Origin: Escherichia coli
GTDB lineage: Bacteria; Pseudomonadota; Gammaproteobacteria; Enterobacterales; Enterobacteriaceae
Direction: 5' to 3' (one strand)
DNA length: 64,000 nt
Assembly: GCF_002854065.1 (NCBI RefSeq)
Contig: NZ_CP024147.1
Shown here: piece by piece, positions 1,049-63,523 of the stretch
Position numbering within the stretch: position 1 is the first letter of the stretch
How the letters are laid out: each line of letters opens with the position of its first letter
Program-made: the position numbers and the translations under genes
Notes under the pieces: generated by a model
Told to the model about the DNA's origin: nothing
The model's input: only the letters and a program-made list of their open reading frames with translations
Database searches by the model: none

Positions 1049-1594
1049 ATGTCTGAAGCTCCTAAAAAGCGCTGGTACGTCGTTCAGGCGTTTTCCGGTT
1101 TTGAAGGCCGCGTAGCAACGTCGCTGCGTGAGCATATCAAATTACACAACATGGAAGATTTGTTTGGTGAAGTCATGGTACCAACCGAAGAAGTGGTTGA
1201 AATCCGTGGCGGTCAGCGTCGCAAAAGCGAACGTAAATTCTTCCCTGGCTACGTCCTCGTTCAGATGGTGATGAACGACGCGAGCTGGCACCTGGTGCGC
1301 AGCGTACCGCGTGTGATGGGCTTCATCGGCGGTACTTCCGATCGTCCTGCGCCAATCAGCGATAAAGAAGTCGATGCGATTATGAACCGCCTGCAGCAGG
1401 TTGGTGATAAGCCGCGTCCGAAAACGCTGTTTGAACCGGGTGAAATGGTCCGTGTTAATGATGGTCCGTTCGCTGACTTCAACGGTGTTGTTGAAGAAGT
1501 GGATTACGAGAAATCTCGTCTGAAAGTGTCTGTTTCTATCTTCGGTCGTGCGACCCCGGTAGAGCTGGACTTCAGCCAGGTTGAAAAAGCCTAA
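1049..1594 (+). CDS. nusG: transcription termination/antitermination factor NusG
   Basis: 181-aa ORF beginning [22 protein letters not shown], recognised NusG; 1-bp spacing from secE. Confidence 0.97.
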
Positions 1595-1633
1595 CCCAGC
1601 GATCAAAAAAGCGGCGATTTAATCGTTGCACAA

Positions 1634-1672
1634 GGCGCGAGATTGGAATACAATCTCGCGCCTTTTGTTTTT
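1634..1672 (+). terminator. rho-independent terminator after nusG
   Basis: Inverted repeat ggcgcgagattg...caatctcgcgcc followed by TTTTGTTTTT. Confidence 0.75.
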
Positions 1673-1689
1673 ATGGGTCTTGCCCGTAA

Positions 1690-2889
<1,200 letters not shown>

Positions 2890-3180
2890 TGCCTTTACGT
2901 GGGCGGTGATTTTGTCTACAATCTTACCCCCACGTATGCTAACGAAAGTTAGCAGCTAAAAAGATTTGTTCGTTGGAGCCTGGCCTATCCAGGCCTCCGT
3001 CGAAGACCGCAGGAGTTTCGCAAGAAACTTAATCCCCTGCGTAGACGGTGACAGAACGGTAAGATTATTCTTTTATATTCTGGCTTGTTTCTGCTCACCG
3101 TAATTAAGACGCTCTCTCCGTTTGGAGGAGTGAAGTGAGTTCCAGAGATTTTCTCTGGCAAACATCCAGGAGCAAAGCTA
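2890..3180 (+). promoter_or_regulatory. rplJ-rplL leader region (L10 operon promoter and structured leader used for translational autoregulation)
   Basis: 290-bp non-coding interval between rplA and rplJ; the long structured leader upstream of rplJ is established for this operon; exact element boundaries not resolved by eye. Confidence 0.5.
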
Positions 3181-3678
3181 ATGGCTTTAAATCTTCAAGA
3201 CAAACAAGCGATTGTTGCTGAAGTCAGCGAAGTAGCCAAAGGCGCGCTGTCTGCAGTAGTTGCGGATTCCCGTGGCGTAACTGTAGATAAAATGACTGAA
3301 CTGCGTAAAGCAGGTCGCGAAGCTGGCGTATACATGCGTGTTGTTCGTAACACCCTGCTGCGCCGTGCTGTTGAAGGTACTCCGTTCGAGTGCCTGAAAG
3401 ACGCGTTTGTTGGTCCGACCCTGATTGCATACTCTATGGAACACCCGGGCGCTGCTGCTCGTCTGTTCAAAGAGTTCGCGAAAGCGAATGCAAAATTTGA
3501 GGTCAAAGCCGCTGCCTTTGAAGGTGAGCTGATCCCGGCGTCTCAGATCGACCGCCTGGCAACTCTGCCGACCTACGAAGAAGCAATTGCACGCCTGATG
3601 GCAACCATGAAAGAAGCTTCGGCTGGCAAACTGGTTCGTACTCTGGCTGCTGTACGCGATGCGAAAGAAGCTGCTTAA
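3181..3678 (+). CDS. rplJ: 50S ribosomal protein L10
   Basis: 165-aa ORF, recognised L10; RBS aggagcaaagctaATG. Confidence 0.97.
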
Positions 3679-3744
3679 TCGCAGTTATCTTTTTAACGCA
3701 TTCGCTTACGTATAAACTTATTCTGATATTCAGGAACAATTTAA

Positions 3745-4110
<366 letters not shown>

Positions 4111-4125
4111 GCCAACCCTTCCGGT

Positions 4126-4185
4126 TGCAGCCTGAGAAATCAGGCTGATGGCTGGTGACTTTTTAGTCACCAGCCTTTTTGCGCT
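4126..4185 (+). terminator. rplL-rpoB intergenic attenuator (partial terminator)
   Basis: Two consecutive hairpins, agcctgagaaatcaggct and ggctggtgactttttagtcaccagcc, the second followed by TTTTTGCG; position matches the known rpoBC attenuator. Confidence 0.7.
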
Positions 4186-4429
4186 GTAAGGCGCCAGTAG
4201 CGTTTCACACTGTTTGACTACTGCTGTGCCTTTCAATGCTTGTTTCTATCGACGACTTAATATACTGCGACAGGACGTCCGTTCTGTGTAAATCGCAATG
4301 AAATGGTTTAAGCGTGATAGCAACAGGCATTGCGGAAAGTGTTCCATTTTCCGGTCAACAAAATAGTGTTGCACAAACTGTCCGCTCAATGGACAGATGG
4401 GTCGACTTGTCAGCGAGCTGAGGAACCCT

Positions 4430-7400
4430 ATGGTTTACTCCTATACCGAGAAAAAACGTATTCGTAAGGATTTTGGTAAACGTCCACAAGTTCTGGATGT
4501 ACCTTATCTCCTTTCTATCCAGCTTGACTCGTTTCAGAAATTTATCGAGCAAGATCCTGAAGGGCAGTATGGTCTGGAAGCTGCTTTCCGTTCCGTATTC
4601 CCGATTCAGAGCTACAGCGGTAATTCCGAGCTGCAATACGTCAGCTACCGCCTTGGCGAACCGGTGTTTGACGTCCAGGAATGTCAAATCCGTGGCGTGA
4701 CCTATTCCGCACCGCTGCGCGTTAAACTGCGTCTGGTGATCTATGAGCGCGAAGCGCCGGAAGGCACCGTAAAAGACATTAAAGAACAAGAAGTCTACAT
4801 GGGCGAAATTCCGCTCATGACAGACAACGGTACCTTTGTTATCAACGGTACTGAGCGTGTTATCGTTTCCCAGCTGCACCGTAGTCCGGGCGTCTTCTTT
4901 GACTCCGACAAAGGTAAAACCCACTCTTCGGGTAAAGTGCTGTATAACGCGCGCATCATCCCTTACCGTGGTTCCTGGCTGGACTTCGAATTCGATCCGA
5001 AGGACAACCTGTTCGTACGTATCGACCGTCGCCGTAAACTGCCTGCGACCATCATTCTGCGTGCCCTGAACTACACCACAGAGCAGATCCTCGACCTGTT
5101 CTTTGAAAAAGTTATCTTTGAAATCCGTGATAACAAGCTGCAGATGGAACTGGTGCCGGAACGCCTGCGTGGTGAAACCGCATCTTTCGACATCGAAGCT
5201 AACGGTAAAGTGTACGTAGAAAAAGGCCGCCGTATCACTGCGCGCCACATTCGCCAGCTGGAAAAAGACGACGTCAAACTGATCGAAGTCCCGGTTGAGT
5301 ACATCGCAGGTAAAGTGGTTGCTAAAGACTATATTGATGAGTCTACCGGCGAGCTGATCTGCGCAGCGAACATGGAGCTGAGCCTGGATCTGCTGGCTAA
5401 GCTGAGCCAGTCTGGTCACAAGCGTATCGAAACGCTGTTCACCAACGACCTGGATCACGGCCCGTATATCTCTGAAACCTTACGTGTCGACCCAACTAAC
5501 GACCGTCTGAGCGCACTGGTAGAAATCTACCGCATGATGCGCCCTGGCGAGCCGCCGACTCGTGAAGCAGCGGAAAGCCTGTTCGAGAACCTGTTCTTCT
5601 CCGAAGACCGTTATGACCTGTCTGCGGTTGGTCGTATGAAGTTCAACCGTTCTCTGCTGCGCGAAGAAATCGAAGGTTCCGGTATCCTGAGCAAAGACGA
5701 CATCATTGATGTTATGAAAAAGCTCATCGATATCCGTAACGGTAAAGGCGAAGTCGATGATATCGACCACCTCGGCAACCGTCGTATCCGTTCCGTTGGC
5801 GAAATGGCGGAAAACCAGTTCCGCGTTGGCCTGGTACGTGTAGAGCGTGCGGTGAAAGAGCGTCTGTCTCTGGGCGATCTGGATACCCTGATGCCTCAGG
5901 ATATGATCAACGCCAAGCCGATTTCCGCAGCAGTGAAAGAGTTCTTCGGCTCCAGCCAGCTGTCTCAGTTTATGGACCAGAACAACCCGCTGTCTGAGAT
6001 TACGCACAAACGTCGTATCTCCGCACTCGGCCCAGGCGGTCTGACCCGTGAACGTGCAGGCTTCGAAGTTCGAGACGTACACCCGACTCACTACGGTCGC
6101 GTATGTCCAATCGAAACCCCTGAAGGTCCGAACATCGGTCTGATCAACTCTCTGTCTGTATACGCGCAGACTAACGAATACGGCTTCCTTGAGACTCCGT
6201 ATCGTAAAGTGACCGACGGTGTTGTAACTGACGAAATTCACTACCTGTCTGCTATCGAAGAAGGCAACTACGTTATCGCCCAGGCGAACTCCAACCTGGA
6301 TGAAGAAGGCCACTTCGTAGAAGACCTGGTAACTTGCCGTAGCAAAGGCGAATCCAGCTTGTTCAGCCGTGACCAGGTTGACTACATGGACGTATCCACC
6401 CAGCAGGTGGTATCCGTCGGTGCGTCCCTGATCCCGTTCCTGGAACACGATGACGCCAACCGTGCATTGATGGGTGCGAACATGCAACGTCAGGCCGTTC
6501 CGACTCTGCGCGCTGATAAGCCGCTGGTTGGTACTGGTATGGAACGTGCTGTTGCCGTTGACTCCGGTGTAACTGCGGTAGCTAAACGTGGTGGTGTCGT
6601 TCAGTACGTGGATGCTTCCCGTATCGTTATCAAAGTTAACGAAGACGAGATGTATCCGGGTGAAGCAGGTATCGACATCTACAACCTGACCAAATACACC
6701 CGTTCTAACCAGAACACCTGTATCAACCAGATGCCGTGTGTGTCTCTGGGTGAACCGGTTGAACGTGGCGACGTGCTGGCAGACGGTCCGTCCACCGACC
6801 TCGGTGAACTGGCGCTTGGTCAGAACATGCGCGTAGCGTTCATGCCGTGGAATGGTTACAACTTCGAAGACTCCATCCTCGTATCCGAGCGTGTTGTTCA
6901 GGAAGACCGTTTCACCACCATCCACATTCAGGAACTGGCGTGTGTGTCCCGTGACACCAAGCTGGGGCCAGAAGAGATCACCGCTGACATCCCGAACGTG
7001 GGTGAAGCTGCGCTCTCCAAACTGGATGAATCCGGTATTGTTTACATTGGTGCGGAAGTAACCGGTGGCGACATTCTGGTTGGTAAGGTAACGCCGAAAG
7101 GTGAAACCCAGCTGACCCCAGAAGAGAAACTGCTGCGTGCGATCTTCGGTGAGAAAGCGTCTGACGTTAAAGACTCTTCTCTGCGCGTACCAAACGGTGT
7201 ATCCGGTACGGTTATCGACGTTCAGGTCTTTACTCGCGATGGCGTAGAAAAAGACAAACGTGCGCTGGAAATCGAAGAAATGCAGCTCAAACAGGCGAAG
7301 AAAGACCTGTCTGAAGAACTGCAGATCCTCGAAGCGGGTCTGTTCAGCCGTATCCGTGCTGTGCTGGTAGCCGGTGGCGTTGAAGCTGAGAAGCTCGACA

Positions 7401-56256: not shown

Positions 56257-56751
56257 TTAATTTGCGATTAACTGTTCGTTTATTTTGTCGATAATATTGA
56301 TTGAGGGATCTGACGCTACGACGCGTAAATCCAATATGACGCCAAGATTATTTAACTCATGAAATGCGTTAATATCATCATCATCTAATGAAACCGCTTT
56401 GGTTAACTGTTTTTTACCGGGCCGCCAGGCCATGCCGCCAATATTCAGGGTGCCTATTTTTACCCCCTGGCGAACCATCGCTAAGGCATCCTGTGGGCGA
56501 GTGAAAAGATAAAAAACGGTTTCGTCCTGATATTGCGGGTTGTGATAAACCGCGATGGCTTTTTCAATATTGACCACGTTAACCTTCATTCCCGGTGGCG
56601 CAGCCTGACGCAATAATGTCCGGCGAACTTCATCGTTATAAACTTCGTCATTGCAGATAATAATGCGCTGGGCGTTAGCCACTTTCGACCAGACGGTAGT
56701 GACCTGACCGTGGATCAGGCGGTCATCAATGCGGGCGAGCGTAATGTTCAT
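56257..56751 (-). CDS. sorB: PTS mannose/sorbose-family EIIB component
   Basis: 164-aa ORF with RIDDRLIHGQV phosphohistidine motif of EIIB-Man family. Confidence 0.8.
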   Translation of the reverse strand: MNITLARIDDRLIHGQVTTVWSKVANAQRIIICNDEVYNDEVRRTLLRQAAPPGMKVNVVNIEKAIAVYHNPQYQDETVFYLFTRPQDALAMVRQGVKIGTLNIGGMAWRPGKKQLTKAVSLDDDDINAFHELNNLGVILDLRVVASDPSINIIDKINEQLIAN

Positions 56752-57158
56752 CAGAAATCCTCCTCTGTCGTTGCCAGTTGTTTCCAGACAACGCAGGATT
56801 GCTTTGCGATTTGCGTCAGGTGTTCACACAGTTCATCAACATTCATGCTGTCCTGGTTATCAACCAGTTCGAGGGCCAGCGGCAGAGAAAGGCCGCTGAT
56901 TACCCGCAGACGAGGATTGCGCATCGCAAGCATCGCTGCCGCATTCCACGGGCTGCCGCACTGTAAATCCACGGTAATCAGCCACTCATCTTGATTGTGA
57001 ATGCTTACTAACTTTTCCAGCTTTGCTACGATGTCTCCGGCGTTCTCGCCGGGCACAAATTCAACGGCTTCAACATTGGTGTTGCCGTAAACCATCTGAA
57101 CCGATTCCAGCATGGCGCAAGCTAATTTGCCGTGGGCACAAAAAATGGCGTTGACCAT
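56751..57158 (-). CDS. sorF: PTS mannose/sorbose-family EIIA component
   Basis: 135-aa ORF MVNAIFCAHGKLACAML, EIIA-Man fold. Confidence 0.78.
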   Translation of the reverse strand: MVNAIFCAHGKLACAMLESVQMVYGNTNVEAVEFVPGENAGDIVAKLEKLVSIHNQDEWLITVDLQCGSPWNAAAMLAMRNPRLRVISGLSLPLALELVDNQDSMNVDELCEHLTQIAKQSCVVWKQLATTEEDF

Positions 57159-59338: not shown

Positions 59339-60211
59339 ATGCTGCCCGACTCATCAGTCCGTTTAAATAAATACATCAGCGAAAGCGGAATTTGCTCACG
59401 CCGCGAAGCGGATCGCTATATCGAGCAAGGCAATGTGTTCCTTAATGGCAAGCGAGCCACCATTGGCGATCAGGTGAAACCCGGCGACGTTGTGAAAGTA
59501 AACGGTCAGTTGATTGAACCTCGGGAAGCCGAAGATTTGGTACTTATCGCCCTGAACAAGCCCGTCGGTATTGTCAGCACCACCGAAGATGGCGAGCGCG
59601 ATAACATTGTCGATTTTGTTAACCACAGCAAACGCGTGTTCCCGATTGGCCGCCTGGATAAAGACTCCCAGGGGCTGATTTTCCTCACCAATCACGGCGA
59701 TCTGGTGAATAAGATCCTCCGTGCGGGTAACGATCATGAGAAAGAGTATCTGGTGACGGTCGATAAACCGATTACCGATGAATTTATTCGTGGTATGGGG
59801 GCGGGGGTGCCGATCCTCGGGACGGTGACTAAAAAGTGCAAAGTCAAAAAAGAAGCGCCGTTTGTCTTCCGCATTACCCTGGTGCAGGGGCTGAACCGTC
59901 AGATCCGGCGCATGTGCGAGCATTTCGGCTATGAAGTGAAAAAGCTGGAACGTACGCGCATTATGAACGTCAGCTTAAGCGGCATTCCGCTGGGAGAATG
60001 GCGCGATTTAACCGACGACGAGCTTATCGATCTCTTTAAGCTCATTGAAAATTCCTCTTCCGAGGCGAAGCCCAAAGCGAAGGCCAAACCGAAAACAGCG
60101 GGCATCAAACGTCCAGTCGTTAAGATGGAAAAAACGGCGGAAAAAGGCGGTCGCCCGGCGTCCAACGGTAAGCGTTTTACCTCGCCGGGGCGTAAAAAGA
60201 AGGGGCGCTAA
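59339..60211 (+). CDS. rluF: 23S rRNA pseudouridine synthase RluF
   Basis: 290-aa ORF with S4 domain and RsuA-family catalytic motif ([13 protein letters not shown]), lysine-rich C-terminal tail. Confidence 0.92.
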
Positions 60212-60484
60212 TCAGCGCCTGCCGCGCGTCGACGTATTTGCTGACCAGCTAAATGACGCTTCAGGATCCGGTTTATAAGCCTGCTTTTTCTTCAATTGGC
60301 GGGCTTTTTTTGCTTCAGCCTCACGCTCAACCATTAATTTATCGATGTAATCTTTCTTAATGCTGTTGGTTTCGGAGTTGGTCAGTACGCGACCATGCGC
60401 AATCCGCGCCCGATCCAGCAGTGTTTTAAGTTCACGCTGCTCGCGTTCAGTCATCTCTTTTTGGGTAATACGGGGGAGTGCCAT
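60212..60484 (-). CDS. yjbD: DUF3811 family protein YjbD
   Basis: 90-aa basic ORF MALPRITQKEMTEREQRELKTLLDRA; stop codon abuts rluF stop. Confidence 0.85.
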   Translation of the reverse strand: MALPRITQKEMTEREQRELKTLLDRARIAHGRVLTNSETNSIKKDYIDKLMVEREAEAKKARQLKKKQAYKPDPEASFSWSANTSTRGRR

Positions 60485-60582
60485 GATGGTGCCCTCAGTG
60501 AGCCAGAGAGTTCAGTGTACGGGAATTCGTTTGCGAGCAGAACTGATAATATTCCTTTGTTCTCTTCGGTAATGACTCCAAC

Positions 60583-61086
60583 TTATTGATAGTGTTTTAT
60601 GTTCAGATAATGCCCGATGACTTTGTCATGCAGCTCCACCGATTTTGAGAACGACAGCGACTTCCGTCCCAGCCGTGCCAGGTGCTGCCTCAGATTCAGG
60701 TTATGCCGCTCAATTCGCTGCGTATATCGCTTGCTGATTACGTGCAGCTTTCCCTTCAGGCGGGATTCATACAGCGGCCAGCCATCCGTCATCCATATCA
60801 CCACGTCAAAGGGTGACAGCAGGCTCATAAGACGCCCCAGCGTCGCCATAGTGCGTTCACCGAATACGTGCGCAACAACCGTCTTCCGGAGCCTGTCATA
60901 CGCGTAAAACAGCCAGCGCTGGCGCGATTTAGCCCCGACGTATCCCCACTGTTCGTCCATTTCCGCGCAGACGATGACGTCACTGCCCGGCTGTATGCGC
61001 GAGGTTACCGACTGCGGCCTGAGTTTTTTAAATGGCGGAAAATCGTGTTGAGGCCAACGCCCATAATGCGGGCGGTTGCCCGGCAT
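60583..61086 (-). CDS. insB: IS1 transposase InsB (expressed as InsAB by -1 frameshift)
   Basis: 167-aa [54 protein letters not shown], overlapping insA in -1 frame. Confidence 0.97.
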
Positions 61087-61280
61087 CCAACGCCATTCAT
61101 GGCCATATCAATGATTTTCTGGTGCGTACCGGGTTGAGAAGCGGTGTAAGTGAACTGCAGTTGCCATGTTTTACGGCAGTGAGAGCAGAGATAGCGCTGA
61201 TGTCCGGCAGTGCTTTTGCCGTTACGCACCACCCCGTCAGTAGCTGAACAGGAGGGACAGCTGATAGAAACAGAAGCCAC
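61005..61280 (-). CDS. insA: IS1 protein InsA
   Basis: 91-aa [46 protein letters not shown], zinc-finger plus HTH. Confidence 0.97.
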
Positions 61281-61330
61281 TGGAGCACCTCAAAAACACC
61301 ATCATACACTAAATCAGTAAGTTGGCAGCA

Positions 61331-62035
61331 TCACCCGTTGGTGCTTTCCCAGCTTAATGCCGCTGAGGTGGTTTTTATCATGACTTCTGTTCGGTAGCCT
61401 GCATCTTTGAGTTTTTTTAATGTTTGTAGCGGCGTAGCGGCATTACGAAATGTTCCTTCGACAACAATATTGAGTTTATTGGCTATGGCCCTCTCTATTG
61501 CACGTTCGACCGTTTCGCCGGAAAATTTTGCCGTATGGGTAACAAAATCGTCGCCATAAGTTTGATATATATAATTAAAATCAGGGTGTAGAAATCTGAA
61601 ATCATCACCATTAATAATCATTATATTATTCTTTGTTTCCCTTTTTGCTAATTCGATTAGGGCGGATTTTCCGGCTCCTGGTTGTCCACCTAAAACAAAA
61701 CCAATGGGACTCTGCTGGGATGTGACGTCATGGTTTGTCAGACGCTGCCAAATAGAATCAAAAGACGCTTTATTTTCTGAATGCGCAGTATTATTAAATT
61801 CACGCTGATACTTTTTTCTGACCTGCTGGAGGCGTAACTTTTCCTGTGTAAAATCAACAAGTTCTGCTTGAGTGGAATAAAGATTGTCGCGATAGCTGAC
61901 TAATTGTGATAGCTCATCGTCTGAGTCCTGAACTTGTGAGGAAAAACAACTGTCGACGATATTTGATAAAAACGCGATGCACTGACTGGCGCCGTTTAAA
62001 AGTGCATCCTTTTCCATTAAAGTAGCCATTAACAC
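61331..62035 (-). pseudogene. zeta-toxin-family P-loop kinase with N-terminal extension (EzeT-like), 3-prime end truncated by IS1
   Basis: Walker A GGQPGAGKS and colinear similarity to zeta/PezT toxins; stop codon TGA is formed by bases 3-5 of the IS1 inverted repeat. Confidence 0.7.
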
Positions 62036-62173: not shown

Positions 62174-63523
62174 TTACTCAAACAAATTAAAATGCAGCTT
62201 CTGCACCACCTGCTCGGCATCTTCGCCGGGTACCAGGAAGCACAGGTTATGGCTGGATGCGCCGTAACAAATCATGCGAATGTTGAACGGTTCCAGTACG
62301 CCGAATACCTCTTTGCCAACGCCGCAGGCTTTTGACAGGTCATTGCCAATCAACGCGACCAGCGCCAGACCTTCTTCCACCTCCACCCGGCACAGTGCGG
62401 AAAGCTCCATCAGCAGAGATTGCGTCAGCAACGTATCGCCAGTGGAGGTTGAACCGGTGGTATCAAGGGTTAATGCCACGCTCACTTCTGACGTGGTGAT
62501 TAAGTCTACCGAAATATTATGCCGCGCGAGGATGCCGAAAACTTCCGCGAGGAAACCGCGAGAATGCAGCATATTCAGGCTGTGCAAAGTGAGCAGAGTC
62601 TGATTGCGACGAAGCGCCAGCGCGCGGAACAGCGGCGGATTTTCAGTTTTATTGCACACCAGCGTACCACCTGCGCGTGGGTCTTTGCTGGAGCCGACAA
62701 AGACCGGGATATCGCTGCGTACTGCGGGTAGCAACGTTGCCGGATGCAGTACTTTTGCACCAAAAGTTGCCATCTCTGCCGCTTCGGCAAACGCGATTTC
62801 ATCAATGCGTTTTGCTGCGGAAACTACGCGTGGATCGGTGGTGTAGATGCCCGGGACGTCGGTCCAGATATCAACACGAGATGCGTGTAAAGCCTCCGCC
62901 AGCAAGGCTGCCGTATAATCGCTGCCTCCACGGCCAAGCGTCGTTGTACGACCTTTATTTTCGCTACCGATAAATCCCTGGGTGATCACTAAGCCTTCAT
63001 TGAGACGTGGGAGCAGCTGCAGCGCGGCCAGTTCCGCCAGCGCGGCTATATCTGGCTCTGCACGACCAAATCGGTCGTTGGTACGCATCACTTTACGTAC
63101 ATCAAACCACTGTGCCTGAACATCGCGTTCGCGCAGGATCTCAACAAACAGCAGGGTCGACATCAGCTCGCCGTGGCTGACCAGCTCATCTGTCAGCGCC
63201 GGAGACGTTGCCAGCGCCGCCGCTTCTGCCAGAACAGTAATGTTCTCCAGCAGACGTTCAATCTCTTCACGGATAACGTTCGGGTAACGCAGACGTTCCA
63301 GAATGGCAAACTGGATGTTGCGAATAGCGTCGAGTTTTTCGAATCGCTCGCCAGGTTCCAGTCCTTCAGCTAAAGCGACCAGCAGATTAGTGATACCAGC
63401 AGAAGCCGAGAGGACAACTAAACGCACGTTGGCATCAGAAAGCACAATATCAGCGCTGCGGTTCATGGCGTCAAAATCAGCTACGCTGGTACCGCCAAAT
63501 TTGGAGACAACAATTTCAGACAT
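62174..63523 (-). CDS. lysC: lysine-sensitive aspartokinase III
   Basis: 449-aa ORF MSEIVVSKFGGTSVADFDAMNRSADIVLS, recognised LysC. Confidence 0.96.
   Translation of the reverse strand: MSEIVVSKFGGTSVADFDAMNRSADIVLSDANVRLVVLSASAGITNLLVALAEGLEPGERFEKLDAIRNIQFAILERLRYPNVIREEIERLLENITVLAEAAALATSPALTDELVSHGELMSTLLFVEILRERDVQAQWFDVRKVMRTNDRFGRAEPDIAALAELAALQLLPRLNEGLVITQGFIGSENKGRTTTLGRGGSDYTAALLAEALHASRVDIWTDVPGIYTTDPRVVSAAKRIDEIAFAEAAEMATFGAKVLHPATLLPAVRSDIPVFVGSSKDPRAGGTLVCNKTENPPLFRALALRRNQTLLTLHSLNMLHSRGFLAEVFGILARHNISVDLITTSEVSVALTLDTTGSTSTGDTLLTQSLLMELSALCRVEVEEGLALVALIGNDLSKACGVGKEVFGVLEPFNIRMICYGASSHNLCFLVPGEDAEQVVQKLHFNLFE

Follow-up and report, generated by a model that had tools for sequence, protein, structure and literature searches.

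The gal region of Escherichia coli is the classical case of adjacent deletion by IS1, reportedly described by Reif and Saedler in 1975. The closest described parallels to the locus reported here come from two further sets of deletions and from one toxin gene. E. coli deletions of 11–66 kb that directly adjoin IS1 have been described as consistent with the adjacent-deletion model (PMC10569738), and in the E. coli long-term evolution experiment the deletions next to IS elements, all at IS150, left no duplications and often began small and became larger (PMC11708052). [quoted passage not shown] Accession WP_000212693.1 is listed in a review as the experimentally validated EzeT, adjoining lysC (PMC10532202).

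We analysed a single IS1 copy lying between yjbD and an interrupted ezeT gene in a stretch of 64,000 nucleotides of E. coli DNA, the whole of which is called the window below. The locus resembles the IS1-mediated adjacent deletions at gal and nfsB (for the latter, PMC10569738): IS1 is kept at the boundary, one junction is conserved while the other varies, there is no 8–9 bp duplication, and the endpoint is in AT-rich DNA. No mechanistic difference from IS1 adjacent deletion is visible in the window. The locus differs from the nfsB deletions in size (2.6 kb against 11–66 kb), in affecting an accessory island, and in not having been selected in the laboratory. The small-then-larger pattern of the stepwise deletions in PMC11708052 is paralleled by losses of 217 bp in a sister genome, CUWW06, and 2,637 bp in the window; however, the published events took place at IS150 in the laboratory and were followed through samples taken over time, whereas here the order has to be read from two contemporary genomes.

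The IS1 copy upstream of yjbD

The element occupies positions 60568..61335 on the minus strand and is complete at 768 bp, with its IRR end toward yjbD and its IRL end toward ezeT. Its left end is GGTAATGACTCC at 60568 (IRR type), and its right end is ...GGCAGCATCACC, which stops at 61335 (IRL type). It has the properties of the IS1 family: a length of about 768 bp; two terminal inverted repeats, imperfect and about 23 bp long (GGTGATGCTGCCAACTTACTGAT / GGTAATGACTCCAACTTATTGAT), both present; and insA and insB' frames joined via a −1 frameshift at an A6C motif. The open reading frames of the IS1 transposase genes are insA (61005–61280, minus strand) and the insB' frame (60583–61086, minus strand), with the frameshift motif on the complement of 61023–61029 (minus strand) and the whole insA-insB' transposase span at 60583..61280. 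The copy is 99–100% identical to annotated IS1A/IS1B copies and 100% identical to the IS1 in ET201, in P276M and in both the ezeT and sorB copies of CUWW06. The annotation of relatives is IS1B-like; in CUWW06 the identical element is annotated at corresponding coordinates as ‘IS1B family transposase, programmed frameshift’.

The one property of the family that is absent is the 8–9 bp target-site duplication. The element is preceded by gttctcttc (60559–60567) and followed by cgttggtgc (61336–61344), 9 bp on either side, and the 20-bp flanks, compared at any offset, have no k-mer of 6 or more bases in common. This agrees with the preliminary description, which had reported the same flanks and the lack of a duplication, and had named a correction of the IS1 boundaries as a way in which direct repeats might be recovered. 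None were. The boundaries are validated by 99–100% identical copies in other E. coli, since duplications of 8–9 bp adjoin the same terminal bases there: CATTTTGCC in G3/10, TCTCTTTC in SX12, GAGATGCAG in P276M and CAATTATT in T16R, all within the yjbD–lysC interval, and the 9-bp CATCATCTA at the CUWW06 copy in sorB. A boundary shift that would restore a duplication is thus ruled out, because these copies fix the boundaries and the 20-bp flanks have no 6-mer in common. The absent duplication marks a secondary rearrangement, and is no argument against the identity of the element as IS1.

To the left of IS1, yjbD (60212..60484, minus strand; DUF3811, 90 aa) is an intact open reading frame that matches Pfam PF11656 with E = 1e-42 and is annotated as yjbD in all related genomes. 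Its start codon ends at 60484 and IS1 starts at 60568, which gives the separation of 83 bp that had been noted before. A promoter scan for the sigma-70 consensus upstream of yjbD found no site in either the window or the intact reference described below. The only sigma-70-like match in 60150–61450 is a promoter-like site inside IRL (61301..61328, minus strand), a consensus match that presumably represents the insA promoter of IS1 itself. The earlier placement of IS1 in the yjbD promoter region would thus hold by position only. IS1 and yjbD share one direction of transcription and IS1 lies upstream, 83 bp away, so read-through from IS1 into yjbD is conceivable, as is the loss of upstream regulatory DNA.

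We note a further difference on the other side of yjbD. At the rluF–yjbD boundary some genomes contain an extra GC-rich palindromic repeat of about 122–132 bp (...CCCCTCGCCCCTTCGGGGAGAGGGTTAGG...; L007 1384–1505, also in L003, L005, L006 and L011), which we take to resemble a BoxC-type repeat. In the window, rluF and yjbD abut directly at 60211/60212 and the palindromic repeat is absent.

The deleted segment and the truncated ezeT gene

The reference for mapping the deletion was E. coli 100416 (locus L010), the nearest intact relative, which is IS1-free at this locus and 99.9–100% identical to the window. Identity is 99.9% over 24.5 kb to the left; at the locus itself it is 100% in the left flank and 99.96% in the right flank, with one mismatch in 2,665 bp. 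The preliminary description had proposed an alignment to an E. coli genome with an intact yjbD–lysC interval as the way to find the endpoints, and this alignment resolves them completely. The 83 bp of intergenic DNA upstream of yjbD that the window retains (60485..60567) are 100% identical to L010 up to position 1863, and L010 then continues with TTAAATATTT... where the window has IS1, placing the left endpoint between 60567 and 60568. The right flank begins at L010 position 4501, and the right endpoint is between 61335 and 61336. Positions 1864–4500 of L010 are replaced by IS1: exactly 2,637 bp are lost relative to 100416, and the gap is bounded to the base by the two IS1 termini.

In L010 the order is yjbD (1508–1780, minus strand), a slipin family gene (2308–3435, plus strand; Pfam Band_7/SPFH), a nucleotidyltransferase gene (3441–4232, plus strand; Pfam RlaP, E = 1e-96), the zeta-toxin family gene (4265–5194, minus strand) and lysC (5339–6688, minus strand). 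The slipin/SPFH and RlaP nucleotidyltransferase genes (2308–4232) are arranged head to tail with a 5 bp gap and are convergent with ezeT. The window has lost the slipin/SPFH gene and the RlaP-type nucleotidyltransferase gene in full, together with 444 bp of intergenic DNA and 236 bp from the 3′ end of the zeta-toxin gene. The preliminary description was thus right that the 3′ end of the toxin gene had been removed and was missing beside IS1, but it underestimated the loss, since two whole genes and 444 bp are also gone. A BLAST comparison of the deleted segment, which includes the 3′ remainder of the toxin gene, with all 64 kb of the window gave no match. It is close to certain that an IS1-associated deletion of 2,637 bp took place.

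The remaining part of the toxin gene (61331..62029, minus strand) encodes native residues 1–231 of 309, followed by a Gly codon across the junction and a stop within IS1 (61331–61333). Beyond it lies lysC (aspartokinase III; 62174..63523, minus strand), intact on the evidence of its open reading frame and of annotation in relatives, which forms the right border of the variable interval. The full-length allele of the intact relative is 309 aa long, with Zeta_toxin (PF06414) at residues 102–282 and a GGQPGAGKS motif, and the annotation of that genome has no separate antitoxin gene nearby.

None of the source names for this protein reads EzeT. The identity is established because PMC10532202 names accession WP_000212693.1, which is the commoner allele of the same gene, carried by TUM12355, and to which the full-length allele of the window is 89% identical at the protein level. 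The features of EzeT are also present: the gene is solitary and lies next to lysC, and its full-length product has a Walker A motif within a Zeta_toxin (UNAG kinase) domain, which follows an N-terminal domain of about 83 aa. The likeness to the protein of Rocker and Meinhart (2015) extends to the length of about 309 aa and to the N-terminal extension of about 100 aa that precedes the Zeta_toxin kinase domain. The window allele differs from characterised EzeT in being divergent (89%) and in being cut after residue 231, with the last third or so of the kinase domain lost. The gene is present in 1,433 complete genomes, and only 42 of these have an allele of the window type (at least 99% identity). 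The truncated product matches only positions 10–140 of the 199 positions of the Pfam Zeta_toxin profile, compared with 10–189 for the full-length protein; because profile positions 141–199 are lost, the toxin activity of EzeT(1–231) would be expected to be abolished.

The three proteins of the island (slipin, nucleotidyltransferase and zeta toxin) matched no defence model in a PADLOC scan, so the island does not belong to the catalogued defence systems.

Comparison with CUWW06 and the origin of the deletion

The closest complete genome is CUWW06, which is 100.0% identical to the window across 24.5 kb on the left side and has no mismatches in 2,665 bp on the right. It contains an identical IS1 in the same orientation, with the same IRL/ezeT junction as the window. 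Its IRR end, however, abuts L010 position 4283, compared with 1863 in the window: only 217 bp, internal to ezeT, have been lost, and the slipin and nucleotidyltransferase genes are kept. This IS1 is also without a duplication (gcacttccg on one side, cgttggtgc on the other). Among 5,426 complete E. coli genomes, the right (IS1/ezeT) junction of the window is common to CUWW06 only, and its left junction (yjbD +83/IS1) occurs in none, nor does any have the same overall structure. The exact chimera EzeT(1–231)+Gly-stop is found in 126 blocks of public assemblies, where the contigs shown end in or near IS1. The presence of the IRL/ezeT junction in both CUWW06 and these 126 blocks makes it an inherited lineage marker. 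Since CUWW06 has the same ezeT junction and a different left junction, the ezeT-side junction can be identified as ancestral and the yjbD-side junction as derived.

CUWW06 is not a direct ancestor of the window, because its sorbose PTS IIB gene sorB carries a further identical IS1 (L013 20388–21155) with a clean 9-bp duplication. The sorbose operon of the window is without this copy (homologous region at about 55.6–56.7 kb, just downstream of the IIA gene at 56751–57158). The additional sorB copy also indicates that IS1 is actively transposing in this lineage; in CUWW06 it is present in at least 40 places. A CUWW06-like state could have given rise to that of the window, but the window could not have given rise to it, and both could also have arisen separately from an ancestor that still bore the duplication.

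[quoted passage not shown] Between the two, we regard adjacent deletion, that is, intramolecular transposition, as the best explanation and as the probable one. The ancestor would have carried the accessory cluster yjbD – slipin/SPFH – RlaP nucleotidyltransferase – ezeT – lysC. We infer that IS1 inserted in ezeT with its IRL end beside CGTTGGTGC, and that its transposase then linked the IRR end to new targets elsewhere in the same DNA molecule, in an intramolecular, ‘abortive’ transposition. Such an event would drop the DNA between the IS end and the target, retain IS1 and destroy the target-site duplication. One event of this kind may be preserved in CUWW06 (217 bp); in the lineage of the window the loss would amount to 2,637 bp, whether the CUWW06 state was extended or the deletion arose independently, and would have ended in an AT-rich, IS1-prone stretch 83 bp upstream of yjbD. 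The outcome would be the locus as it now stands: ezeT cut to residues 1–231, the slipin and nucleotidyltransferase genes gone, and IS1 directly upstream of yjbD. In this scheme the endpoints, the lost content and the shared and differing junctions are observed, while the order of events and the part played by transposase are proposed from them.

Adjacent deletion is favoured because one IS end is fixed while the other ends vary between the window and CUWW06, the IS is kept, and there is no duplication, as in the classical picture of such events; it is supported by the match of the deletion endpoints to both IS1 termini to the base. The pattern looked for in such a deletion is present, with a gap bounded by the IS termini and with one junction ancestral and the other novel. 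Within the yjbD–lysC interval, a duplication is present at four simple insertions and at none of the four copies whose neighbours are lost or rearranged (the window, CUWW06, ET201 and GN25), and the same IS1 makes a normal 9-bp duplication in this lineage, at the sorB copy of CUWW06. The left endpoint also fits the target choice of IS1, because it falls within the 200 bp that are richest in AT at this locus (29.5% GC) and because IS1 junctions occur there at seven positions in different strains. Counted from the start codon of yjbD, these are +56 (GN25), +78 (G3/10), +83 (window), +102 (SX12), +123 (P276M), +147 (T16R) and +159 (ET201, with IS1 reversed).

The primary insertion that adjacent deletion would require, an IS1 flanked on both sides by CGTTGGTGC, is present in none of the 5,426 complete E. 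coli genomes. An exact-match metagenome scan for it found nothing, and was demonstrably incomplete; a second exact-pattern scan, for the IS1/ezeT junction, returned zero matches, although the JGI contig L017 (3300029846|Ga0245279_101233) contains that pattern at about 6680–6706. The negative results of the metagenome scans are therefore weak, because L017 carries a pattern that the scan missed.

A possible but clearly less probable origin is homologous recombination. In this case a second, directly oriented IS1 would have inserted 83 bp upstream of yjbD (with the duplication GTTCTCTTC), and RecA-dependent excision between it and the ezeT copy would have left a single IS1, flanked on its left as one copy had been and on its right as the other had been. 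This predicts exactly the final sequence seen; the stretch upstream of yjbD is a demonstrated landing zone for IS1, and IS1 is both active and multicopy in the lineage (at least 40 places in CUWW06, including the extra sorB copy). Six of the seven junctions there have the orientation that is needed, in a search that was biased toward that orientation. Against it, neither a two-copy intermediate nor an IS1 at exactly +83 occurs among the 5,426 complete genomes, and the 217-bp loss in CUWW06 would need a further IS1 about 220 bp away and a second recombination. Recombination requires one more event, whereas adjacent deletion covers both states with one mechanism. A check for chimeric SNPs in the IS1 copies (the window, both copies of CUWW06, ET201 and P276M) had no power to separate the two, as all the copies are identical and a recombinant IS1 looks like a non-recombinant one.

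A single-step origin is very improbable, whether by capture of IS1 in the double-strand break of an IS-independent deletion or by insertion of IS1 into an older, IS-free deletion. The region does decay without IS1 (XJ34 has an IS-free deletion in the island, with about 3 bp of microhomology), and duplication-free IS insertion at rearrangement junctions has been proposed (PMC11708052). However, CUWW06 shares one junction only, which places IS1 at ezeT first and calls for at least two steps, and insertion into an older deletion scar would give a duplication, of which none is present. It is just as hard to credit that the assembly collapsed two IS1 copies around a segment of 2.4–2.6 kb into one: IS1 is a multicopy 768-bp repeat, and short-read contigs with the ezeT junction do break in or near it, but the window crosses IS1 without a break and has unique sequence at either side of it, the 64 kb do not contain the deleted segment, and the independent complete genome CUWW06 has a one-copy, duplication-free arrangement at the same ezeT junction.

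Variability of the yjbD–lysC interval

Other genomes have different rearrangements of the same interval. ET201 (L004 3545–4312) carries the commoner ezeT allele, and a reversed IS1 without a duplication joins yjbD +159 to ezeT at a junction only 4 bp from that of the window, with loss of the nucleotidyltransferase gene and of the 3′ end of ezeT. This is an independent, parallel IS1-associated loss, and it hints at a preferred IS1 target in ezeT. GN25 (L012 2574–3341) has an IS1 on the upstream side of yjbD, at a distance of 56 bp and without a duplication; this copy adjoins truncated prophage tail genes in place of lysC, which indicates that the locus underwent a larger rearrangement associated with IS1. 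The IS-free deletion in XJ34 (L001 at about 2917–2924, compared with L010 2819–4175) took away the 3′ end of slipin together with all of the nucleotidyltransferase gene, and left ezeT intact. TUM12355-type strains are without slipin altogether. The yjbD–lysC island is evidently dispensable and highly variable, and decays repeatedly.

Several of these junctions fall in two places. At the ACCGTTCGTTGGTGC site in ezeT, the IS1 junctions of two independent lineages are 4 bp apart and in opposite orientations, and in six of the seven junctions upstream of yjbD the insAB' transcription runs into yjbD. We did not accept the orientation bias as evidence, since six of seven gives a two-sided binomial p of about 0.125 and the search was biased to that orientation. 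A resemblance of the ezeT target to an IS1 end (GGTGCTTTCCCAGCTTAATG compared with IRL) was likewise rejected: its local score of 8 is below that of chance matches in the island (9–10). It seems a rather long shot that IS1 has genuine hot spots in the AT-rich stretch of about 100 bp upstream of yjbD and at the ACCGTTCGTTGGTGC site, which would cause the ezeT island to be lost again and again, perhaps under selection that favours an inactive ezeT or IS1-driven read-through into yjbD.

Gene loss driven by IS1 of this kind is ordinary, textbook IS biology and well understood; the affected genes are accessory, and as an ordinary strain polymorphism the deletion has little importance beyond strain bookkeeping. 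Within that compass it supplies two nested IS1 deletions from natural isolates (217 bp and 2,637 bp) that have the same IS1 end as their anchor. PCR markers for the lineage could be based on the IS1/ezeT junction and on the yjbD+83/IS1 junction, which is unique. If IS1 alters the expression of yjbD, the strain might help to assign a phenotype to this uncharacterised DUF3811 gene. The locus documents the decay, in one E. coli lineage, of an accessory island with the single-chain toxin-antitoxin gene ezeT.
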